In this document: positions 22,622 to 61,434 of the stretch, in pieces | Layout: each line of letters begins with the position of its first letter | Numbering within the stretch: position 1 is the stretch's first letter | NCBI GenBank assembly: GCA_001001345.1 | Contig: LCKI01000001.1 | Span: forward strand, 339 to 64,338 | Length of the DNA: 64,000 nt | From: Parcubacteria group bacterium GW2011_GWC1_45_14 | GTDB taxonomy: Bacteria > Patescibacteriota > Minisyncoccia > Moranbacterales > GWC2-37-73 | Direction: 5' to 3' | The notes under the pieces: model-generated | Databases searched by the model: none | Told to the model about the DNA's origin: nothing | The model's input: only the letters and a program-made list of their open reading frames with translations | Program-made: the position numbers and the translations under genes

Positions 22622-24448
22622 TTATTTGATATCCGTGACGTGGTAGATAAGAATGGAGGTTCCTACCTGGGCGACGGGGCTGTATTTTTTTAGCCAGCTG
22701 TAATTTTCTTCGACGCTTTTCCTTTCGTCGTGGAGACTTTCTTGGATAAAAAGTACTGAAATGGCGTACCAGCCATTTTCGACAGGCCTTCTGGCGTCCC
22801 ACCAGGAAATCACCTTGTCTTCTCCCAGGTAGTGATTGACGTCGCCTCCGCCGAAATAGTTCACCCTGATTTTGTCTATCCGGGGATTTTCTTCAAGGTA
22901 TGTCTTCAGTCGCTTAATGTCTTGCCCCCAGTCCGCGTTGGAATCGGTGACGTATTGGTAGCCACTGCTTGGTCCGCCGGCGACTTGATTGAAATAGGAA
23001 ATATAATACGGGTAGGATGCCACAGCTTCGATAATCAGCCAGAAGACCATTGTCACGATCATCACGTTGATGAAATTTTTCTTGTGATGGTCTTTTCTCC
23101 TGTAGGAGAAAATCTTTTTGGAGAGCAGAATATAGGCGAACGGGAATATAGGGAATAGATGACGGAAGCCGATATTGAGATTTCCAGTGATGCTGACGAA
23201 GGAATAAATGATTATGAATGAGAGCAGGGCAGTTTCCGTTATCCTGCTATGCAGAAACTCTCTCAGTAAGGTGATATTTTCCCTGGCTGATCTTTTGAAT
23301 GAGTGGGTTAGCGAGAAGAAAGATTCCTTAGCAACGACGGCTAAAGTAAAGAAAAGCAAAACGAGTATCGGCAGGGGCTCTTTCATGAGAAATACCAACG
23401 GGAAGTAGGATGCTTTGGCATCATTGGAAACTTCTCCCATGAAATAAGTTACGTTTCCGCCGGCGACCCGCTGGAAGACGCGGGCTACTCCGAAGAGATA
23501 TTCCCCCAGGGGCTGCAGGATCTCATGCTCATTGATTGCGAAGAGGGCTTTTCTGGTATAGATAGTTTTGATATTGGAATCATTGGCTTTGAAATAGTGA
23601 TTTATGCCGTCGTTCATGACTTCCACTGGCATGCCGGACGTGTTGAAAGCGTAAAGGGCCCAGACCGCGGCGATGGAGACGGCGAAAACCAAAAATCCCT
23701 TAAATACGTATTCGAAGAATTCGCCGATTTTTTTCCTTTCAGGCTTGGTTTTTTTGATAAGGGGATAGCCGACAACTAGCAGGAAAAAAACGGGGAAGGC
23801 GATCACTGAGGAGAATTTTGCCAATTGCAAAAGTCCCAAGAAGAGTCCGGCCAGAAAAACGTTTTTCCAGGAAGGTTGCTTGATGAACTTGAGGAAATAG
23901 TAAAAGGAGAAAGTGATGAAAGCCGCGATTCCCAAATCCGTCGTCACGAGATGGTTGTGTCCCAGGACATTGGGATTGAAGGCGTAAAGAGCCAAGGCTA
24001 AGAGGGCGGCCGGAATAGAGGCGATTTCCTTCGTCCATCGGAAGATGAAAAGTCCGAGAGCCAGGGCAAGCAGGATAAACGGCACACGGGACCAGAAGAT
24101 TACCCGGTCTGGATCGTTGCCTGAACCGTAGAGGAATTTCCTGCCGGCATTCCATTGGTTGTCCGCCACGTTATCGGTCGTCCAGGAGCTGTGGGTCGTG
24201 TCGAAATTGAGATCCAGGAACTGCAAGGGTAGACCTGCTAAATCTTTGAGTAGCGGAGGATGCTCCGGATTGAGGCGCATGTCATGCTCCGAAAGATATG
24301 AATATGACGCCGGGATATGCGCGACTTCGTCATATGTCGCTCCGTCGTTTTTCGCATTGAGCAGGGAAACTGCCAGGACGAAGGACATCATTGTCAAAAC
24401 TAATTTTTTAGAGTGTCTCTTGAGGAAGTAGTCGATTTTTTGCAGCAT
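22622..24448 (-). CDS. GT-C family membrane glycosyltransferase (PMT/ArnT-like, GT39/GT83)
   Basis: multi-TM, YDEVAH acidic loop near N-terminus. Confidence 0.7.
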   Translation of the reverse strand: MLQKIDYFLKRHSKKLVLTMMSFVLAVSLLNAKNDGATYDEVAHIPASYSYLSEHDMRLNPEHPPLLKDLAGLPLQFLDLNFDTTHSSWTTDNVADNQWNAGRKFLYGSGNDPDRVIFWSRVPFILLALALGLFIFRWTKEIASIPAALLALALYAFNPNVLGHNHLVTTDLGIAAFITFSFYYFLKFIKQPSWKNVFLAGLFLGLLQLAKFSSVIAFPVFFLLVVGYPLIKKTKPERKKIGEFFEYVFKGFLVFAVSIAAVWALYAFNTSGMPVEVMNDGINHYFKANDSNIKTIYTRKALFAINEHEILQPLGEYLFGVARVFQRVAGGNVTYFMGEVSNDAKASYFPLVFLMKEPLPILVLLFFTLAVVAKESFFSLTHSFKRSARENITLLREFLHSRITETALLSFIIIYSFVSITGNLNIGFRHLFPIFPFAYILLSKKIFSYRRKDHHKKNFINVMIVTMVFWLIIEAVASYPYYISYFNQVAGGPSSGYQYVTDSNADWGQDIKRLKTYLEENPRIDKIRVNYFGGGDVNHYLGEDKVISWWDARRPVENGWYAISVLFIQESLHDERKSVEENYSWLKKYSPVAQVGTSILIYHVTDIK

Positions 24449-26304: not shown

Positions 26305-29300
26305 ATGCGTCTGAAATTTTTTCGATTAGAAATAAAAATGGCCCAGGAAAACAAAGACATAACAATAATGAACGTGGAAACCGAAAAGATGAGGGCGCTT
26401 AACGCTTTTATTGAAGACGTGTTGAATCGGAAAATAAGATTGTTGAAGAGCGGCCAAGTTGACGGTGCGACCGTCACGTTCGAGGATTTCAAAATCAAAG
26501 GCTCCGATATCCCTCAGAACAAGCTACCGAACAACAGCGAGGACACGATTGAGCTGGAAAAACGTATCCAGAAATCTAATAGGATATTGCGCAAGGCTTA
26601 TGAGAGCATTTTGGAAGCCGGAATAAGCCAAGCAATGGAAAGGGAAATAGAGGAAATTTTCGAGTCCATTTTTATGGATGGGGCGCTTTTTGGAAAGTTG
26701 TACAAAGCTGACCAGGAGCTTATTAGAAAGGCGAATGAAGAGGGGATAACGGGAGATTTGGAAGATCTTTTCATAAAATCCGTCGCCAAGGAAGGGATCG
26801 GGAAAATGGGAAGGGAGGAATTGAAAAAACTCATCAAGGATTTTTGCACGGACAGGGGAAATCTTGAAAAGATAGTTACCAAAGATGAAGATAAAGACAA
26901 GATGATCGATGCGATAGTAAATCTTACTGGTCTTTTTGGTAGTTCCAGGGGAGAAACCGGGGAGAATAAACAGGAGCCGACAAAAAACGAAATATTGGAG
27001 AAATATCTCAGCTACCAGGATACTGATTTGCTGGATGAAAGAAAAAAATCCATGCTTGAGTCGACGATGAAAGGGGTGAGCGCGCAAAAATATGCCGAGG
27101 CATTATTGGAGATTTCTCGGAATGGGGATATGGCGGAGGTAGAAAGATTGGTAAAAGGCATGAAAGCAGAGTGTCTGAATGCGTTAATTGCTTTAAAAAT
27201 TGAAAAAACAAAGTACGCCGACAGTGATAGTTGGGCGATGTGGGATATAGCCAAACAGTATCACTTTTACACCCACCCGAGCGAAAATGACCCAAGATAC
27301 TTATTGGCGAATCCATTGGAGTCCGAGGAAAAAATTGAGGAAATCATAGACAGGCACATAGGATGGGAGCTGTATGCTTATTTCAGTAAAAATGGGGTTG
27401 ATGTGGTGAATATCGTAGGCGATGGCGAAAAAAAGAAAAAGATCCTGGATATTCTGACAGGAGAAAAGAATGCTTCAGGGGGGATAAGTTCGTTTAATTT
27501 AGCCGTGCTTGGAAAGTTATTAAAATCTGAAATTCCAGGATTTAAGCATGAAAAGATGCTGAGTGTTGACGGTGGAAATCCGGATGGAAAAAAAGACAAG
27601 GATGCTTCCGACGGCAAGGAGGAGAAAAAAACAAAGGAGGAGGTTCCATTGGATAAAAATTCCCTGTTGGAAAAAGGCAAGACCGCATCTGCGGAACTGG
27701 ACAAGCTCTGGAAGAAGCTCCCTGATTATCCCAGGATGGAGCCGGAGTTCGAATCCGTTTTCCGAATACTTGATATGGAAGGTGAAAATTACTTCGATTA
27801 TCTTTGCAAAAAAGACGAACAATCCTCCGATTGGAAAACTCTGGATGAAGAGGGAAAGAATAAAAAGATCAATAACAGGGTCGAGCACGTCGAAACCATA
27901 AGGGGTATGGTCAAGAAAAAGTTGCTGGAGCTCGGCATAGAATTGGAGGACCCTAAGAAAAAAGAGAAGGGGGCTGATAAAAATGAGGGATCGGCCGAGG
28001 AGCGGAAAGATGATGGCAAGAAAGCTGAAGATATGAGCGAAGAGGTTACTGAGAGGGTGAAGATCTTAAAGAAGGAAGTGGAAATCGCCAGAAAGGAGTA
28101 TTTGGAAACGGACTATAGGAAAAAGAACTCCCTGAGAAGAATCTATGCGTTTTTGGGAGCTAGTTTCAAGAACAAAGAAGAAAAGACCCTGGAAAAAGAT
28201 CTGGATATCGCATGGCATAGGGCCCATTATGATAACAAGCTTTTCGATCTGCAAAAGGTGATGCTTGACGATGCGAAAGAGAGAGGCGTGTCCGACAAGG
28301 AACTTGCTGAGATAGGCATATATTTCAGAATGGAGCAGAAGATAAACATGGCTGAGGTCCATGATCAGGTGAAATCCGAGCAACAAGACAAGAAGTTGTC
28401 GGGATTCATTGAGAAGAAAGCGCTTGAATTAACCGATTTTTACAAGACTATGCCGCTGGGCAAGAAGCTCTTGATTGCCGGAGTGTTTTTGGGTGGCAGT
28501 GTCGTGACCGCTGGAGTCGGTGGAGCTGCTGCTGGGGCTTTTATTACAACAGCTACCGGAAGAAAAATGCTGATGGGCATGTTCGCCGGAGTGGGAGTCA
28601 CTCTCGGACTTGAAGCGAGGGGAAAAAAGAGCGAGAAAGCCGCAATCGAGAAAGAGAAGGCGGGGTTTTTGGAATCCATTAAAAACATGAATGAGGAAGA
28701 AAAATATAACTTCATTGCGGGCAATATAAAGAACATATCGATCAAAGACGGGGAATTAGCTATCAATAAGATCAAAAATCAAGATATCCGCCAGAAGATT
28801 GCCGGTGTGTCCGCGGGATTTGCAGCCACCGTCCTTCCCGGCATTGTCAGTTCTTATGCCGGGGAAGCGTATGCCGGGATACTTGAAAAAATCTCCCCAG
28901 AAAGCGTTCCGGCTCCGCCAGTTATGTCCGAGGTGGTCCTTGAGGTCAAAAAAGGCAGCAGTTTCGAGGGAACCATCATAAAGCATCTTTCGGATCCCAA
29001 TTCTGAGATATACAAACATCATCCCGAGCTTAAAAATGTCGATCCCGGAGTCATCGCCCATAGATTAGCTTTGGATTTCGCGCACGATCATGGGACCGGG
29101 CTTCCGGATTTGGTAAATCCTGATGACAGGATAAGCATAAAATTCGATCCGGCCGCTTTGAAGATAAATGGAACGCTTGAGGATTCCGTCAGGATAGATA
29201 TTGAGAGCCATTTGGAGCCCGGAAAGACCTCTGAGATTACTAAGGCGGTTCCTGCTGAAATTCCGAAAGTCGTTCCGGCTACGGAGGTGCCGGCTTCCCC

Positions 29301-50598: not shown

Positions 50599-50605
50599 CA
50601 GGAGT

Positions 50606-50641
50606 AGTATTTAGTATTTAGTATTTAGTATTTAGTATTTT
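50606..50641. repeat. 7-bp tandem repeat (gtattta)x4.5 followed by a hairpin aatactgtatacaagatacagtatt
   Basis: direct inspection. Confidence 0.7.
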
Positions 50642-50862: not shown

Positions 50863-51156
50863 ATGATCACGCGGCACGGCCGTGAGGGATTCTACTATGT
50901 ATATGTCATAGAAAATGACCATGATTTGAGTTGGTATATTGGATTTACGATTAATTTTGGAAAAAGATTGCAGGAGCACAACTCCGGTAAATCACCGTAT
51001 ACTTCCAGGAAACAGGGAAAACGGAGGGTTATATATGCGGAGTGTTATCTTTCCAAAAAAGATGCGTTGTCAAGGGAGGAATTCTTGAAATCCGGTTCTG
51101 GTAGAAGATTTTTAAAGAACCAATTAAAGAACTACTTGCACGCGACGCCGTTGTAG
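50863..51156 (+). CDS. GIY-YIG nuclease domain protein (YhbQ/UPF0213-like), stop overlaps 5' end of tRNA-Thr(GGU)
   Basis: FYYVYVIEN...WYIGFTINFGKRLQEHNSG. Confidence 0.6.
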   Translation: MITRHGREGFYYVYVIENDHDLSWYIGFTINFGKRLQEHNSGKSPYTSRKQGKRRVIYAECYLSKKDALSREEFLKSGSGRRFLKNQLKNYLHATPL

Positions 51157-51415
51157 CTCAGTCGGTAGAGCGTATCCATGGTAAAATTTTGCCCACCGCA
51201 TGGGAAACCAAGCGGTGAATCCCGAATAACGGTTAAAGGCCTCGCATAAGGTTCAGACCGTGGCGTCAGCAAGGCGCCCGAACGACTGACAAGGGGAGCT
51301 GCGTCCGAAAGGATATGCTCAATATACAGTCTAATCCTCTACGATATATGTTTGTTGGAAAAATAGAGGTGTTAAATGAAGGATAAGGTCCGCGGTTCGA
51401 TCCCGCGCAACGGCT
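51147..51415 (+). tRNA. tRNA-Thr(GGU) interrupted after anticodon by ~196-nt group I intron
   Basis: 5' exon GCCGTTGTAGCTCAGTCGGTAGAGCGTATCCATGGT, 3' exon AAGGATAAGGTCCGCGGTTCGATCCCGCGCAACGGCT form a complete cloverleaf when joined. Confidence 0.6.
51183..51378 (+). ncRNA. Group I self-splicing intron (Azoarcus tRNA-Ile-like IC3 architecture)
   Basis: follows exon U, ends with G; CCGCATGGGAAACCAAGCGG (P3/P4-like), GGTTCAGACCG and ATATACAGTCTAA (P7 strands CAGAC/GTCTA). Confidence 0.55.
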
Positions 51416-51424
51416 CAGGGAAAA

Positions 51425-51457
51425 AGTAATCAGTAATCAGTAATCAGTAATCAGTAA
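51425..51457. repeat. 7-bp tandem repeat (gtaatca)x4.5 following tRNA-Thr(GGU)
   Basis: direct inspection. Confidence 0.7.
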
Positions 51458-51505: not shown

Positions 51506-51667
51506 ATGGGACACATCAAGGACACGATGGCGAAGATGCGATGCTCCGAATGCAAGGAGATCAACTATTATTCTTCACGCAACAAGAAGAAAGTGAAGGA
51601 GAAACTTGAGATGAACAAGTATTGCAAGAGATGCCAGAAGCATACGCTTCACAAGGAAATGAAATAA
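51506..51667 (+). CDS. rpmG: 50S ribosomal protein L33
   Basis: [44 protein letters not shown]; below ORF-track cut-off. Confidence 0.8.
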
Positions 51668-51733
51668 CCTGTCAGTCGCGACTGACGGGTTAAACCCGTT
51701 GCTCGCGAGCGACGGGTTAGCTCCTTCTGACTT

Positions 51734-51982
51734 ATGCATTACGTCTATCTTCTTAAATTGGAAAACACCAAAAAGAATTTTTATATTGGTTGTACTTCTG
51801 ATTTGAAGAGGCGTTTACGTGAGCATCAGTCTGGGAATACTCAAACGACAAAAGGAAAAAATCCCAAACTTATCTATTATGAAGCATTTTCCGATAAGGA
51901 TTTGGCTCAAAAAAGAGAAGAGGGATTGAAAACAAGCGGATCCGTTTATAATGCGCTGATAAGAAGGTTGGGATTAAGATAA
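51734..51982 (+). CDS. Second GIY-YIG nuclease domain protein, flanked by 20-nt direct repeats
   Basis: HYVYLLKLEN...FYIGCTSDLKRRLREHQSG. Confidence 0.6.
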   Translation: MHYVYLLKLENTKKNFYIGCTSDLKRRLREHQSGNTQTTKGKNPKLIYYEAFSDKDLAQKREEGLKTSGSVYNALIRRLGLR

Positions 51983-51986
51983 GATT

Positions 51987-52055
51987 GCGGGCATCGTATA
52001 GTGGTAATACGGCGGTCTCACCAGTCAGTCGCGACTGACGGGTGTCTCCAAAACC
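51987..52055 (+). pseudogene. Pseudo tRNA-Trp: 5' half (to anticodon loop) carrying 26-nt palindromic insertion with ctc duplication, no T-arm/3' half
   Basis: identical to 52088-52120 of intact tRNA-Trp then accagtcagtcgcgactgacgggtgt insert. Confidence 0.45.
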
Positions 52056-52087: not shown

Positions 52088-52158
52088 GCGGGCATCGTAT
52101 AGTGGTAATACGGCGGTCTCCAAAACCGTTAACGTGGGTTCGATTCCTACTGCCCGTG
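52088..52158 (+). tRNA. tRNA-Trp(CCA)
   Basis: anticodon loop CTCCAAA, T-loop GGGTTCGATTCC, acceptor GCGGGCA/TGCCCGT. Confidence 0.75.
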
Positions 52159-52162
52159 CAAT

Positions 52163-52210
52163 AAAATAAAACAGGTACTTATTCAAATAAGCACCTGTTT
52201 TATTTTATTT
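52163..52210 (+). terminator. Strong rho-independent terminator after tRNA-Trp
   Basis: aaaacaggtacttatt-caa-ataagcacctgtttt plus T-run. Confidence 0.55.
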
Positions 52211-52335
52211 GTATTGATGCGTAGGAATCGAAGGGTATTTCAAAAAGGCAAACTGCTTTGCGTTTTTGAAAACCCAGGCTTTGAAGGAGGAAATGAGGCA
52301 TGTGCTTGCAAAGCACGCCGAATGACGGGTGAAAA

Positions 52336-52355
52336 GGATTCCTACTGCCCGTGCA
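52336..52355. repeat. 20-nt direct repeat of tRNA-Trp 3' end (gattcctactgcccgtgcaa), att-site-like
   Basis: identical to 52141-52160. Confidence 0.45.
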
Positions 52356-52497
52356 AATTAATGAAAAAACGCTTATTTAGGGCGTTTTTTTGTATCTTCT
52401 ACTTCTATAATATTTTTTAATATTGACAATTTTTTTAAAACCTTGTATATTTTCATGAAAGTTTTGTTCCTTAAACAATTTCGAGAGGAGAAGCGCC

Positions 52498-53496
52498 ATG
52501 CCTAAAAATAGCTTTTATTTTCAGTGGCATATCACTGATTTTTGCGGCAATCGTTGCACACATTGTTATTTGAATGATTTCAATAAAACCAAGGTCTCCT
52601 TACGAACAGCGCGAAAGATCATGGATGACATGCAAGATTGTTGTAGTGAGCTTGATGCTGAAACAATCTTATCCATAACTGGAGGTGATCCACTTACTCA
52701 TCCAAACATTTGGGAAATTCTTGAGCAGGCGAGAAAATTTGTTCGCAAGTTGGCTGTTTTGGGAAATCCCGAGTTACTTAATGAAAAAAGTATAGGGAAG
52801 CTACAGAGTATAGGAATTGATTGGTATCAAGTTTCCCTGGATGGCTTACAGCAAACCCATGACAAAATTCGTAGTCCGGGAAGTTTTCAAAGAACCGTTG
52901 GTGGCATTAGGAGATTGGTAGATGCGGGCATTACGGTTGTTGTGAATTCGACCATTTCGGATTTGAATCTTAATGAAATGTCGGATGTCATGAGGTTGTG
53001 CTATAACTTGGGTGTTGGAAAATGGTCGTTTGCTCGTTATGTTCCAAATAGTGGAACGTGCGGACTAACAGCCAGGGAATATAACAATTTCCTGAAAGAA
53101 GTGTATCGTGAATCAATTGATCTAGCGGGAGAAAAATCAACCTTCATTTCAGGGGATTCCCTGATGAATTCTGCTATTGATAGACCTCAAGATTGTGATA
53201 GTATTGTAGGAGGATGTGCGCTCGGTGGCTCCGCAATGTGCATATTGCCTGATAATACTGTTATGTCTTGTCGTAGACACAAGGAAAGTTCCTTGGGCAA
53301 ATGGATGAAAAAGGGCGATTTATTGGAACTTTTTCTTTTTCATCCAAAAATGCAAGAGTATCGGAAAACAGAGTTGATTGAAGGATGTGGAAAATGTGCA
53401 TTTAGGTTTCAGTGTCGCGGATGTCGTGCATTAGCACTTGCTCAAAGCGGAAACACATTTGGGAAAGATCCCCAATGTGTCATTACTGACAGCTAA
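52498..53496 (+). CDS. Radical SAM / SPASM-domain peptide-modifying enzyme
   Basis: CGNRCTHC (CxxxCxxC) near N-terminus, C-terminal Cys clusters CDSIVGGCALGGSAMC...GCGKCAFRFQCRGC. Confidence 0.8.
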   Translation: MPKNSFYFQWHITDFCGNRCTHCYLNDFNKTKVSLRTARKIMDDMQDCCSELDAETILSITGGDPLTHPNIWEILEQARKFVRKLAVLGNPELLNEKSIGKLQSIGIDWYQVSLDGLQQTHDKIRSPGSFQRTVGGIRRLVDAGITVVVNSTISDLNLNEMSDVMRLCYNLGVGKWSFARYVPNSGTCGLTAREYNNFLKEVYRESIDLAGEKSTFISGDSLMNSAIDRPQDCDSIVGGCALGGSAMCILPDNTVMSCRRHKESSLGKWMKKGDLLELFLFHPKMQEYRKTELIEGCGKCAFRFQCRGCRALALAQSGNTFGKDPQCVITDS

Positions 53497-53519
53497 TAGC
53501 TGGGAAAGGAGAATGAGTG

Positions 53520-53639
53520 ATGCCTAAGCGGAAAAAAGCGAATGTGGCAGCTGCCAAAAAAGAATTGCAGCGGCAAGGGTTCATTTCCAAGGCTTCGGCC
53601 GAAACTTGCGCCATCTGCACCGGCATGGATGGGGACTAG
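53520..53639 (+). CDS. Candidate RiPP precursor peptide (39 aa, MPKRKKANVAAAKKELQRQGFISKASAETCAICTGMDGD)
   Basis: AAGGAG RBS 8 nt upstream of ATG, 24 nt after rSAM stop, C-terminal CxxC. Confidence 0.45.
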   Translation: MPKRKKANVAAAKKELQRQGFISKASAETCAICTGMDGD

Positions 53640-53715
53640 GAAGCATTCTGGTCTCAAGACGGGAGAGGAGGCAAATGCTTCTTCTCCCGTTTTTTATTAA
53701 TACTTCAGTATCAAT

Positions 53716-54309
53716 ATGAATAAAAAATATTTAAAAGTTGAAAGTTTTTATAATTCTAACTCCCAAGGTTATGCGGAAAATTCGGCAGTTATTTTGCGTG
53801 AACAGGTAGGATATTTTCTTTCTAGTATTCCTGATAATGGTCGTATTCTAGATGCCGGTTGTGGTCCTGGTCATGATACGGAATTTTTTTCAAGAAAAGG
53901 ATTTGACACTACAGGTATAGACTTCTCTGTCGAGATGATTGAATTTTGTCGAAAACATAGAAAGGGTGGCGTTTTTAGAAAGATGAATATGTTAGATATG
54001 GGCAGGAATTTTCCCAGAAATTATTTTGATGGAATCTGGATGTCGTCATCAATTACGCATCTGGAAGACAGGGATATTATTAAAGTATTAAAACAAGCAA
54101 AGAACATTCTCTTGGAAAATGGAACGTTGGCAATTATTATAAAAAGAAAGTTCAATAATAAATTGCAGCCAAGAGAAATATTATTCAGGCAATTTTATAA
54201 AAAAGAAATCATAAGTCTATTAAAATTGTCGGGTTTTTCAAAAATTAAATTAACAGATTTTGAAGCTTTGAATAAGAAATGGCTTTTTGTTCTTGCGAAT
54301 AAAGCTTAA
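53716..54309 (+). CDS. Class I SAM-dependent methyltransferase
   Basis: ILDAGCGPGHD motif I. Confidence 0.8.
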   Translation: MNKKYLKVESFYNSNSQGYAENSAVILREQVGYFLSSIPDNGRILDAGCGPGHDTEFFSRKGFDTTGIDFSVEMIEFCRKHRKGGVFRKMNMLDMGRNFPRNYFDGIWMSSSITHLEDRDIIKVLKQAKNILLENGTLAIIIKRKFNNKLQPREILFRQFYKKEIISLLKLSGFSKIKLTDFEALNKKWLFVLANKA

Positions 54310-54458
54310 TTCTTTTTATAATTTTCTTAATAGGCTGTTTGCGCGCTGCAATCTGACATCGATTCTGTCCCAATTTTCCAAAATATTGTTCCTAGTCGTA
54401 TCCATAGCCCGTGCAAACAGTAAAAATGCCTTTATATGGGCATTTTTGCGTTTTAGTC

Positions 54459-54487
54459 TTGACATAAACAAAAAATAGGAGTATAAT
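54459..54487 (+). promoter_or_regulatory. Consensus sigma70 promoter TTGACA-17-TATAAT
   Basis: -35 54459-54464, -10 54482-54487, followed by AAGGAGG RBS and ATG 54554. Confidence 0.55.
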
Positions 54488-54553
54488 ATATGGTCATGGA
54501 AATGACGATTTATAGTTTACTTAACCACGCACCTTAAAAAAAGGAGGAAGTGA

Positions 54554-55381
54554 ATGAAAGTGGAACTGCAAGAACAGGTCAGGAAGCTGGAGAAGGATAT
54601 CCGCCTGAAATCCGCTGAAGCCGCAAGAATTTCGGAGGAAAACGAAATTATCCGTGCGGAGGACGGACGTTTGCGTGAAACCATGAATTTTCGGGAACGC
54701 AATCTTGGCGGCTGGTTTGGCGGCGACAGGAATAAGGTGGCGAGGGTTCGCGAGCTTGAAATGAAATCCGCAGAACTTGATTCGCAGGCAAGCAATTTGG
54801 GGCAAGAGGCAGAAAAGTGCGAGAATGACCTGAAAGTCTTCATCGATGCCTATCTTCGGAATTGCGACGCGAGTTATCAGTCACTCGTCCAGCCTTACGA
54901 TAGGGCTGTCGAGATGAAAAAAGCCATCGCTGTTTTTCTGGAAAAAATCGACATCGCGCTTTCTGAAATCGGCGACGCGCAAGGAATGGAAACGATCGAT
55001 CTCTTAAGTAGCAACAAGGGGATAGCGGCTCTCTCTTACATGGAGAATTCCGAAGCAAGTGATGCGATCGACGAGGTCCGTGCGGCTGTGAAAATTTTCC
55101 AAGAGGCCGTTATCGCTTATAAGGATTCTTCTGGAGGTTTCCAGTCTTCCAAGATTGAAACGGAGATAGGCGACGGTATCGATCTCGTATTCGATTTCGC
55201 CTTGGAAGGTTTCGACTTCATGAGTATCTTCACCCTTTCCGCGTTAGGCGATGCGGAAGACGAATTGAGCGATGTTCGTGAAAAAGTGAACAAGTTTGAT
55301 GAAATCTTCTCCGATTATTTCGCAAAGATGGAGGAAGCCGTTACTTCCTATATCCGCAATGTCAGAGTTTCCTGCGCTTGA
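54554..55381 (+). CDS. Hypothetical coiled-coil protein, likely highly expressed
   Basis: consensus promoter, strong RBS, terminator hairpin at ~55405-55436. Confidence 0.55.
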   Translation: MKVELQEQVRKLEKDIRLKSAEAARISEENEIIRAEDGRLRETMNFRERNLGGWFGGDRNKVARVRELEMKSAELDSQASNLGQEAEKCENDLKVFIDAYLRNCDASYQSLVQPYDRAVEMKKAIAVFLEKIDIALSEIGDAQGMETIDLLSSNKGIAALSYMENSEASDAIDEVRAAVKIFQEAVIAYKDSSGGFQSSKIETEIGDGIDLVFDFALEGFDFMSIFTLSALGDAEDELSDVREKVNKFDEIFSDYFAKMEEAVTSYIRNVRVSCA

Positions 55382-55533
55382 TCGCTCAGGAAAAACATGC
55401 GACCCGTCACTTATCCAAGTGGCGGGTCGTTTTTAATTTCATTCGCTTCGGTTTTGGTATTTTTCAAAAATATAGGGAATCGGGATTTTTCGTGATAAAA
55501 TAATGGGGTAATAATCAGTCTGGTAAATTATAT

Positions 55534-56319
55534 ATGAAAAGGAATTTTTTTATCACCCTTTTTTCTTCCATGGTTCTTTTGACGGCCAATATTTCTTTTG
55601 CTGCTGATTGTGAATGGCCAAGCAGGCCTACCGATTATCAGACAACGGTTGAAAATTTTAGGAAGGCGGAAAGCCGTTGCGATCCGGACGATGCGAAGTT
55701 TAATTTGGAAGAATGCAGAAAATGTTGCGATAGGATAGACACCATAAAACACAGTGAGCCATGGGGCGGTGCGCATCCTGGTGAATGCAAGATATTGAAA
55801 GATCCGCCTACGACCAAGACAGTCAAAGTCGCCCCCATTGCTTCTCCGATTATCACGCCTGCAGTTAAAAGCGAAGCCGTAAAAGCAGTCGATGATAATG
55901 CCCAAATAGAACAGCAAAAACAAAAAGAAGAGCTTGAACGCCAGCAGGAAGAGATTATTCGAAAAAAAGAACAGATCAGGGATGAATTGGAAAAAGATGA
56001 GCTTGAAAAAGAAAATTTATTCAAAAACCAAAAAAATCTTGTCGCTTCCATTGAGAACAAAAAAGCCGCAATAGTCTTTTTGCTTGGTCCTGATTATAAA
56101 AACATAGGTCAGCTTAGAAGCGAGTTGGTAAAAAATTCCGCACTTTCAAAAAAGCTTCAGGAAAAGTTGAATGACGAAATGGACGAGGAGAGTAGGATTA
56201 TGATCCAAGAGGAAATCCAGCAAATATCAAGTCAGCAAGAAACTATAAATAATGTTATTGAAAAAAGTGAAAATGTTTTCAGTTTATTCGGATGGGCCTT
56301 TAAATTCCTTGGAAAATAG
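55534..56319 (+). CDS. Secreted Cys-containing coiled-coil hypothetical protein
   Basis: signal peptide MKRNFFITLFSSMVLLTANISFAADC. Confidence 0.5.
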   Translation: MKRNFFITLFSSMVLLTANISFAADCEWPSRPTDYQTTVENFRKAESRCDPDDAKFNLEECRKCCDRIDTIKHSEPWGGAHPGECKILKDPPTTKTVKVAPIASPIITPAVKSEAVKAVDDNAQIEQQKQKEELERQQEEIIRKKEQIRDELEKDELEKENLFKNQKNLVASIENKKAAIVFLLGPDYKNIGQLRSELVKNSALSKKLQEKLNDEMDEESRIMIQEEIQQISSQQETINNVIEKSENVFSLFGWAFKFLGK

Positions 56320-56443
56320 TGCCAATGTTCTTACAATGAAATTATAACGGACATGCATCATCATGATATGATGCATGTCCGTTTTTTTATTTTTTATGTC
56401 GTTTGTGGTAAAATAAAATCACTTGAAAAAACTTCATATAAAA

Positions 56444-56508
56444 ACAAAAATTCACCCTGTTGAATCCCCGATGCTTCGGGGTCGGCTGGGCCGAATTCAA
56501 CAGGGTAA
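56444..56508. repeat. Palindromic nested-hairpin element copy E, right arm abuts ATG of oxidoreductase
   Basis: aaaacaaaaattcaccctgttgaat ... attcaacagggtaa. Confidence 0.6.
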
Positions 56509-60810: not shown

Positions 60811-61038
60811 ATACAAAGAGGATGAAGAGGGGATTGGCAGTCCTTTTGCGCCTAGGATAAGGCATAATCTTCGGAAAATTCAAGAGCGGCCTCGATGGAA
60901 AAATCGGGGAAAGCGGGTGGAACCGCGGGCATGAAAGCTCGTCCCGGATATATCAAGAGTAATTTTGATGTGTCGGGGATGGGCTTTTTTTATTTGCTTA
61001 TCTCCCTACAAAAATACAAATCGATTACAAATTTACAA

Positions 61039-61434
61039 ATGTGCGAAGATAAAAATATAGATAAAGTTATATACAAGGAATTGAGCTATGAGGTGATGGG
61101 GGCGGTGTTCGAGGTATACAACGAGCTAGGCTATGGTTTCAAGGAGAGATTCTATGAAGACGCTATCGCAAAAGAATTTGACAGGAAGAATATAAACCAC
61201 AAGAGGCAGGTTCCCTATAAATTAAAATATAAGGATGAGGTGATAGGGCTATACAGATTTGATTTTTTGGTGGAAGACAAGATTATAATAGAATTGAAAA
61301 GAGGCGATTTTTACTCTAAGCAGAATTATACGCAAGCCCTCCAATACTTGAAAGCTACTGGATTGAAATTGGCGATTTTAGTGAATATAACCCAACAAGG
61401 AGTTAAATATAAAAGGATACTGAATATAAAATAG
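61039..61434 (+). CDS. GxxExxY family protein (PD-(D/E)xK-like)
   Basis: VMGAVFEVYNELGYGFKERFYEDAIAKEFDRKNI ... DFLVEDKIIIELK ... YLKATGLKLAILVN. Confidence 0.65.
   Translation: MCEDKNIDKVIYKELSYEVMGAVFEVYNELGYGFKERFYEDAIAKEFDRKNINHKRQVPYKLKYKDEVIGLYRFDFLVEDKIIIELKRGDFYSKQNYTQALQYLKATGLKLAILVNITQQGVKYKRILNIK

Follow-up and report, generated by a model that had tools for sequence, protein, structure and literature searches.

A conserved, structured noncoding element behind tRNA-Trp in a Patescibacteria genome is probably a new miniature insertion element and not the remnant of an island

Integrase-borne elements reportedly integrate in the T-loop or 3′ part of transfer RNA (tRNA) and transfer-messenger RNA (tmRNA) genes, and CIME-type elements are integrase-less derivatives of such tRNA-integrating elements. 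A repeat resembling their attachment (att) sites lies behind tRNA-Trp in the stretch analysed here, 64,000 nucleotides of contig LCKI01000001.1 from Parcubacteria group bacterium GW2011_GWC1_45_14 (hereafter the window), and the initial annotation took it for the trace of a decayed island or for the site at which the downstream genes had been acquired. The att-like signature stands in so far as the inserted DNA is flanked on both sides by copies of the tRNA 3′ segment in direct orientation; the insert, however, is no decayed island but an intact, conserved and structured element of ~135 nt, belonging to a family of noncoding elements (type-A units) that is absent from Rfam 15 and from the literature searched. 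The element probably represents a new type of miniature insertion element, not what is left of a former island. Type-A units share with integrase-borne and CIME-type elements a direct repeat running from the T-loop to the 3′ end, a gene restored by an element-borne copy, the use of tmRNA as an additional target and tandem arrays at one gene. Unlike integrase-borne elements, they carry neither integrase nor cargo and span about 175 bp including the spacer; their interior forms a three-way junction with compensatory changes, their 5′ arm is the inverse of the target, and tRNAs of no fewer than 12 specificities are hosts to the one family.

The 64 kb contain the 20-mer GATTCCTACTGCCCGTGCAA in two exact copies, at 52142–52161 and 52337–52356 on the plus strand, 1 nt above the positions first given. 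The expected number of matches is 0.01 in shuffled sequence, and two matches appeared in 0 of 100 shuffles, which excludes chance similarity as the source of the repeat; the next best match in the window, at 26844, has four mismatches. The proximal copy starts at T-loop G57 of an intact tRNA-Trp(CCA) gene (52088–52159, plus strand; ARAGORN, 63.3 bits with the Rfam tRNA model), continues to the tRNA 3′ end plus CAA and runs 2–3 nt beyond the gene. Between the two copies lie 175 nt of noncoding DNA without cargo genes. This segment opens with the strong terminator-like hairpin already recognized in the initial annotation, here termed spacer ‘D’ (52160–52209, plus strand), whose 24-nt arms (52160–52183 and 52186–52209) are 96% complementary and lead into a T-tract. 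An inverted T-arm piece is likewise present, 6 nt higher than first placed (gcgtaggaatcgaagggt at 52219–52236, not 52213–52230), and its exact inverse complement to the T-arm comprises 12 nt (52221–52232 against 52139–52150). Tail, spacer and 5′ arm together make up a single long interrupted palindrome with the terminator loop at its centre.

When 185,579 species-representative genomes were scanned for the interior signature, 52 loci were found. Of these, 37 are genuine units, all in metagenome-assembled genomes (MAGs) of Patescibacteria, where one genome often has several, and the remaining 15 are fortuitous matches within GC-rich coding sequence. The hosts include Moraniibacteriota, Saccharibacteria, Parcubacteria, Uhrbacteria, Kuenenbacteria and Paceibacterota. 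Thirty long-form units were aligned over about 140 columns, seeded by a motif pattern that did not demand pairing, and a covariance model (R1) built from this alignment gave 51 matches across the retrieved loci. RNAalifold resolves the alignment into a three-way junction: helix P1 joins the 5′ arm to the start of the tail, with an invariant GAA after its 5′ strand; P2 is a 17-pair hairpin with GGG/CCC closure, followed by AGG; P3 is variable; and P4 (CUCY/RGAG) stacks directly on P1, as part of a stack that also includes P3. GRAGGAG and GACGGRUGA form a conserved internal loop, and the conserved loops between the helices are rich in purines. Standard pairs fill 95.3% of cells, versus 34–60% when the partners are slid, and changes on both sides occur in 24 of the 34 pairs, versus 8–13 in controls; 0 of 500 shuffles matched the observed pairing and covariation measures. 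The paired columns hold 25 G.U against 9 A.C, a bias that favours the tRNA-sense strand as the folded one; in the window, this strand is the lagging-strand template (positive GC skew). Across the family the core measures ~105 nt and the whole unit ~105–135 nt.

In the window, R1 recovers the whole type-A unit at 52214–52356 on the plus strand with 135.1 bits as the sole real copy; a weak match at 23962–24069 falls inside a 608-aa open reading frame (ORF) and was dismissed as noise. Folded alone, the unit has z = −3.5. The inverted T-arm fragment is the 5′ strand of the element's closing helix, and the second 20-mer is its other strand. All parts lie on the plus strand: the 5′ arm GTAGGAATC (52221–52232), inverse of the T-loop and the 3′ strand of the T-stem and directly followed by the invariant GAA; the long, GGG/CCC-closed hairpin P2 (52233–52275), with compensatory changes in 13 of its 17 pairs and pairing kept while the sequence differs among homologues; the junction AGG, the P4 5′ strand (CTTT) and the conserved GAAGGAG (52276–52290), delimited by invariant columns and P4 covariation; the variable hairpin P3 (52291–52323), missing from short-form units; and the conserved GACGGGTGA with the P4 3′ strand (AAAG, 52324–52336), which abuts the tail, the last two parts being placed by alignment and fold. 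The distal tail copy (52337–52356) comprises the P1 3′ strand (52337–52345) and the remaining tRNA-Trp 3′ end. Behind it folds a further hairpin with a T-tract (52364–52391), probably the native tRNA-Trp terminator. Only tRNA-Trp among the four tRNAs of the window is followed by a type-A unit.

Known families and coding explanations do not account for the unit. Rfam 15 gave no unit hit at E values up to 1 in the window and up to 0.5 in eight loci, where hairpin noise alone was returned, and resemblances to the tmRNA 5′ region, a signal recognition particle RNA motif, the hammerhead and the kink-turn/C-box were dropped, since no model hit supports them. A 68-aa ORF over the unit (52214–52420) is not a gene, because homologues show insertions and deletions in P3 and compensatory changes in the stems; GGAGG was also discounted as a coding or Shine–Dalgarno signal, no conserved start codon lying downstream.

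Unit ends match the individual host tRNA. Units follow a tRNA on the same strand at a distance of 17–67 nt, with 12 specificities represented (Tyr, Trp, Ser, Gly, Glu, Gln, Pro, His, Asp, Lys, Thr and Asn), and some copies stand away from any tRNA (L026). G57 is the invariable start of the direct repeat, whose length ranges from 8 to 79 nt and whose end mostly falls within a few nucleotides of the tRNA 3′ end; conservation of the distal tail extends well past the 8–9 nt required for P1. The 5′ arm plus GAA is the inverse of the T-loop from U54 onwards. Past the universal GAWTCC, it matches its own tRNA for a mean of 2.9 nt, compared with 1.1 nt in mismatched pairings, a difference equalled in 0 of 10000 permutations; at locus L061 the arm is an 18/19 inverse copy of the entire tail. 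Among the bases of the repeat are genomic ones other than CCA (GCAA both in the window and in L040), indicating that it was copied from DNA or a precursor and not from mature tRNA. One type-A unit lies right behind a Saccharibacteria tmRNA gene (L047, 2838–3321, minus strand). There, the encoded CCA is kept in the distal tail copy and missing from the proximal one, a pattern that fits an element-borne proximal copy and a displaced original distal copy.

The same repeat arrangement, with other genes downstream, recurs in a close relative of the window represented by loci L005 to L009 (L005 is NCBI LCNJ01000003.1, a sequence also present in a Candidatus Moranbacteria MAG, L022), an observation that runs counter to the island proposal. 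Behind the tRNA-Trp of L005 come a terminator, an inverse T-arm piece, a hairpin, CCCAGG..GGAG, the same 20-mer and a terminator, and this unit is followed by a second, different one. The two genomes carry different forms at one tRNA: the window has a long-form unit and L005 a short form without P3/P4, apparently through deletion between the two GRAGGAG motifs. Their proximal spacers are unrelated in sequence, spacer ‘D’ included, whereas the distal flank that holds the hairpin at 52364–52391 is partly similar. Short forms lacking P3/P4 and the conserved loop are found at four different tRNAs. The tRNA-Tyr of L005 is also followed by a homologous unit, both ends of which match tRNA-Tyr. This unit is absent from the window, and L006 has another short remnant with its own tail copy; L005 and L006 were accordingly rejected as an occupied/empty pair.

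Further evidence for turnover comes from other loci. At L043, L052 and L033, a complete unit is followed by tail, spacer and a 3′-truncated second copy, with exact repeats of 60–79 nt, and one MAG has an identical spacer-plus-core at three loci with different distal flanks. Genomes often hold several similar unit copies, which have att-like repeats and no adjacent recombinase. Unit interiors track host lineage, not tRNA identity: those at different tRNAs of the same genome are 77–89% identical, against a between-genome mean of 61%, and the window unit shares 88% identity with a unit behind tRNA-Gly in another Moraniibacteriota MAG but only 66% with Parcubacteria Trp units. This pattern requires either movement between tRNAs or gene conversion. 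Type B, a second family of tRNA-tail units, likewise opens with an inverse T-arm and includes a copy of the tail; it sometimes stands in tandem with type A (L038 6020–6170, L020 200–350, L056 3700–3870, L005 10464–10574 and L006 after tRNA-Tyr). At L016 4225–4320, a 68-nt insert duplicates the leader and positions 1–18 of tRNA-Ser, and a ‘hairpin-CCCAGG-N-GAAGG’ module is common to type A, type B and this insert.

We interpret the unit as a non-autonomous insertion element, currently or formerly mobile, that enters between T-loop positions 56 and 57, and assign this reading a probability of about one half. Insertion there would bring in a replacement tail and the terminator hairpin (52142–52220), and tRNA-Trp would stay intact, attL-like, because the element carries that replacement tail. 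The original 3′ end and native terminator would be pushed downstream (52337–52391, attR-like), so that the distal tail copy at 52337–52356 is probably the displaced original 3′ end. The geometry would then be that of attL/attR, with the 175-nt ‘island’ being the element itself. The model predicts an empty site reading GTGGGTTC joined to GATTCCTACTGCCCGTGCAA and then ATTAATG, and a circle or tandem junction in which GGGTGAAAAG is followed by GATTCC...GCAA and then TAAAATAAAAC. In the most speculative step, the 5′ arm of a free form would pair with the element's own tail and so recreate the target site as a duplex at the foot of the junction, and the folded single-stranded DNA or RNA would serve as substrate for an enzyme encoded elsewhere.

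Several observations weigh against this interpretation. The Pfam screen of 45 window ORFs detected no integrase, as the initial annotation had noted, and no transposase or reverse transcriptase domain; clustering of neighbouring ORFs within 8 kb of units at about 38 loci revealed no recurrent protein. Genome-scan loci, viral contigs and phage records yielded no autonomous parent, the search covering only loci with the 5′ core motif, and neither a clean empty site nor an excised circle was recovered. An element with its own tail cannot easily change tRNA without producing a chimeric tRNA, and at L061 an identical tail plus terminator flanks one unit on both sides, an arrangement that looks more like a target-site duplication. 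Within-genome similarity could be explained by gene conversion among resident copies, and a functional RNA would likewise be in keeping with the strong conservation of the unpaired loops and of the distal tail past P1. Furthermore, the invariance of the seed motifs arises partly by construction, because the motif pattern seeded the alignment. Other searches were also negative. No IntI, XerCD-dependent phage or Y1/HUH transposase gene lies within 8 kb of units, blastn against phage records gave no unit match, and two hits of the core pattern in IMG/VR viral contigs were both chance matches in GC-rich coding DNA. A metagenome scan with the exact 20-mer recovered only L005-type contigs and two unrelated bacteria with the order tuf-tRNA-Trp-secE and no unit, and no convincing orphan unit halves, which would signal large insertions within units, were found.

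The unit can be compared with several other described systems. Integron attC sites, CTX-phage attP(+) and the ends of IS200/IS605 elements act as folded single strands, and element DNA pairs with the target. As in these systems, structure is conserved in one specific strand while the sequence drifts, self-pairing can rebuild a duplex resembling the chromosomal target, and target choice could be encoded in the nucleotides of the element; unlike them, the unit targets the tRNA T-loop, and its junction loops have no counterpart there. Group I introns have a P3–P9 catalytic core, are usually 200 nt or more and interrupt their gene. Those of Patescibacteria tRNAs resemble the units in being abundant in the same phylum and inserted in a conserved tRNA loop, and group I introns in general share a 5′-proximal segment complementary to both sides of the junction and an invariant G before the downstream ‘exon’. 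The unit differs in its core of about 105 nt without P3–P9 or any Rfam hit and in its site, the T-loop rather than the anticodon loop, and splicing is not needed, because the upstream tRNA is already complete. A group I intron was consequently rejected as its identity, the ~105-nt three-way-junction core giving no RF00028 hit.

The Mauriceville and Varkud retroplasmids of Neurospora take up tRNA sequences and enter the genome at tRNA genes by way of hybrid complementary DNAs. Like them, units are small, with a tRNA-like 3′ end, junctions of tRNA sequence and a duplication at the tRNA gene; the retroplasmids, however, encode their own reverse transcriptase, none of which was seen near type-A units, and copy mature CCA tRNAs, whereas type-A repeats hold non-CCA bases. 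Miniature inverted-repeat transposable elements and repetitive extragenic palindromes of bacteria are similarly short, noncoding, multi-copy and hairpin-rich and are mobilized in trans, if at all. Units differ from these in their strict placement at tRNA genes, their far more conserved structure and terminal inverted repeats that consist of target sequence and vary from target to target. IS91-type elements insert 3′ of GTTC/CTTG and use an HUH transposase; the unit junction follows the T-loop GTTC and one-ended, longer-than-unit arrays occur, but no transposase or IS91-like ends were seen.

A bolder generalization, which we regard as tentative and rather unlikely, is that type-A units, together with the type-B units and 5′-side inserts that have the ‘hairpin-CCCAGG-N-GAAGG’ module in common with them, represent new protein-less, structure-defined mobile elements whose own nucleotides guide them to the universal T-arm of tRNA and tmRNA genes. 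The 5′ arm would read one DNA strand and the tail the other, and both target-matched ends would be regenerated at each insertion through an RNA or single-stranded DNA intermediate, possibly a small circle of about 180–200 nt with the same three-way junction fold. Such elements, on this doubtful premise, would belong neither to the integrase att systems nor to any family of introns, ribozymes or insertion sequences described so far.

Among the alternatives, a resident, non-mobile small-RNA gene whose product requires a 3′ tail resembling that of a tRNA for a processing, decoy or regulatory role, transcribed with or after the tRNA and homogenized by gene conversion, is possible but somewhat doubtful. 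Strong structural covariation and invariant unpaired loops, the G.U bias of the sense strand and a distal tail conserved beyond the needs of P1 are what such a gene would display, although short forms without P3/P4 and the conserved loop persist at four different tRNAs, and tandem and 3′-truncated copies share exact long repeats. Units are always oriented with the tRNA and usually have a terminator behind them, yet no conserved promoter precedes them and the T-tract of the upstream terminator stops about 10 nt before the unit. The lack of a mobility enzyme near about 38 loci also speaks for a resident gene, against which stand the single unit among four window tRNAs, the copies without a nearby tRNA (L026) and the variation in presence, subtype and spacer between close relatives. 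RNA-mediated or guided spread is an unlikely account, in which the unit RNA would bind a tRNA gene by both ends, the 5′ arm pairing with the top strand and the tail with the bottom, and be copied in by reverse transcription or template switching, or through a ribozyme-like or guide-dependent reaction; it is also unlikely that target-matched ends are regenerated in this way at each insertion. Target-derived ends matched to individual tRNAs, a 5′ arm plus GAA that is complementary to both sides of the 56/57 junction in the manner of an internal guide, and the invariant G as last nucleotide before the tail are in keeping with this scheme, as are the L061 inverse tail copy (18/19) with its duplication resembling that of a target site and the arrays of a complete and a 3′-truncated copy, which resemble longer-than-unit copying. 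No reverse transcriptase was seen near units, however, non-CCA bases in the repeats mean that mature tRNA was not the template, and known models of ribozymes and introns give no match to the ~105-nt core. A survey likewise reports no group II introns in Patescibacteria (PMC13011429).

More improbable still is that units are by-products of nuclease repair, GIY-YIG enzymes cutting in or near tRNA genes and fold-back or template-switch repair duplicating the tail around a passenger; switching at the terminator palindrome and at the universal T-loop microhomology would, equally improbably, give the inverse and direct copies. GIY-YIG ORFs do stand next to tRNA genes, twice in the window and also in L053 and L041, each beside a displaced 5′ half of a tRNA, but a GIY-YIG gene lies within 8 kb at only 4 of the ~38 unit loci. 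The palindrome of tail, spacer and 5′ arm and the 15-nt, 93% complementary inverse tRNA-Tyr tail in the first window ORF of this kind (50878–50892) also speak for this account, yet accidents of repair would not give a conserved ~105-nt core with covariation across phyla. Phage T4 offers a precedent, in that SegB is reported to be a GIY-YIG nuclease acting in a tRNA gene cluster (PMC2330249) and a later study links SegB to segmental amplification (PMC13096335). Refitting of tail and arm, the L061 duplication and the 3′-truncated distal array members keep both the RNA-spread and the repair models alive. The original proposal of an integrase-borne island that decayed to 175 bp and left attL/attR scars now appears very improbable, as does chance similarity: a direct repeat of a tRNA 3′ end is the classical att signature, and the downstream region is variable and of lower GC content, but the 175 nt match the family model at 135 bits with all helices kept, the same element stands behind many other tRNAs, the window has no integrase and no repeat lies beyond the variable genes.

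Whichever account applies, many copies are kept beside essential single-copy tRNA and tmRNA genes, though Patescibacteria genomes are among the smallest of bacteria. Mobile units would represent harmless insertion into an essential RNA gene through a spare tail, with target recognition that may be written in the bases of the element and would in principle be reprogrammable; functional RNAs would constitute a widespread unannotated class connected with the biology of tRNAs, in a phylum for which few regulators are known. The units, together with the GIY-YIG/5′-half inserts, yield partial tRNAs that confuse att-site and island finders, tRNA annotation and assembly, and model R1 makes a phylum-wide census possible.

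The window contig derives from groundwater Patescibacteria and is identical to JGI Ga0209727_1000141 and NCBI DNCZ01000014.1. Its gene order reads tsf, PSP1, TPR, tRNA-Thr(TGT), tRNA-Tyr, GIY-YIG, split tRNA-Thr(GGT), rpmG, GIY-YIG and tRNA-Trp, with a radical-SAM gene, a methyltransferase gene, two genes without assigned function and a Pyr_redox gene downstream. In L005, the L33 protein is identical to that of the window, both GIY-YIG genes are absent, and three different small minus-strand ORFs occupy the position of the radical-SAM block. This variable block of about 4 kb (52400–56410 in the window, differing from L005 10575–11690) lies between the distal terminator of the unit and the Pyr_redox promoter. 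A strong promoter of the radical-SAM gene is present at 52423–52451 (TTGACA-17-TATATT), and from 56402 onwards, in the promoter region of Pyr_redox, the sequence is again homologous to L005. The block is of lower GC content (0.36–0.41) and variable between relatives; its proposed acquisition at the att-like site, however, is not explained by the repeats, because it lies outside the repeat-bounded segment and has no tail copy at its far edge. The search of the 64-kb window also returned no other repeats bounding 52400–56410. A hairpin insert of ~58 nt, TTCACCCTGTTGAAT...GAATTCAACAGGGTAA (56451–56508), sits in the Pyr_redox 5′ leader and is absent from L005. A further presence/absence gene is the PD-(D/E)XK (PDDEXK_3) nuclease ORF at 60895–61434, between the DEAD-box helicase and class II aminoacyl-tRNA synthetase genes, for which no such gene is called at the equivalent position of L005.

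The 5′ side of tRNA-Trp bears an insert of a separate class, overlooked in the initial annotation. A 41-nt, 95% identical copy of the leader and the tRNA-Trp 5′ half (leader plus positions 1–33) lies at 51979–52019, and positions 31–41 follow at 52045–52055, so that a displaced 5′ pseudo-copy found by repeat search covers 51979–52055 on the plus strand. The second GIY-YIG ORF (51734–51982, plus strand; 82 aa, Pfam PF01541, E = 8e-14) abuts it, ending 3 nt ahead of the tRNA-Trp 5′ pseudo-copy. At L053 808–1206 and L041 1413–1844, a GIY-YIG ORF likewise stands between a displaced tRNA 5′ copy ending at U33 and an intact tRNA. These GIY-YIG/5′-half inserts look like a mirror-image insertion class with entry at the anticodon loop and a restoring 5′ half as freight. 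A palindromic element, ACC(T/A)GTCAGTCGCGACTGACGGGT, occurs at 51667–51690 and 51694–51717, after rpmG, and at 52020–52043/52044 within the pseudo-copy, with no further copy in the window; the pseudo-tRNA of L041 is interrupted by a different palindromic insert. The first GIY-YIG ORF (50863–51156) lies between tRNA-Tyr and tRNA-Thr(GGT) and holds its inverse tRNA-Tyr tail in the first codons, a segment of the same kind as the type-A 5′ arm that may link GIY-YIG cassettes and units; in L007, this inverse-tail segment is found upstream of the tRNA-Tyr unit, across an assembly gap.

The tRNA-Thr(GGT) gene itself (51147–51415) was missed by ARAGORN and Rfam, being split by a 196-nt insert (51183–51378) at anticodon-loop position 36/37; it is uninterrupted in L005 (9859–9932). 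The insert is preceded by U, ends in G and folds with z = −3.7, and it matches the divergent group I introns that are reported from Patescibacteria tRNA-Thr(GGU) (PMC13011429). Two perfect 7-nt tandem repeats, TAGTATT (5.1 copies, 50605–50640) and AGTAATC (4.7 copies, 51425–51457), both absent from L005, sit directly behind tRNA-Thr(TGT) and the split tRNA-Thr(GGT), respectively.

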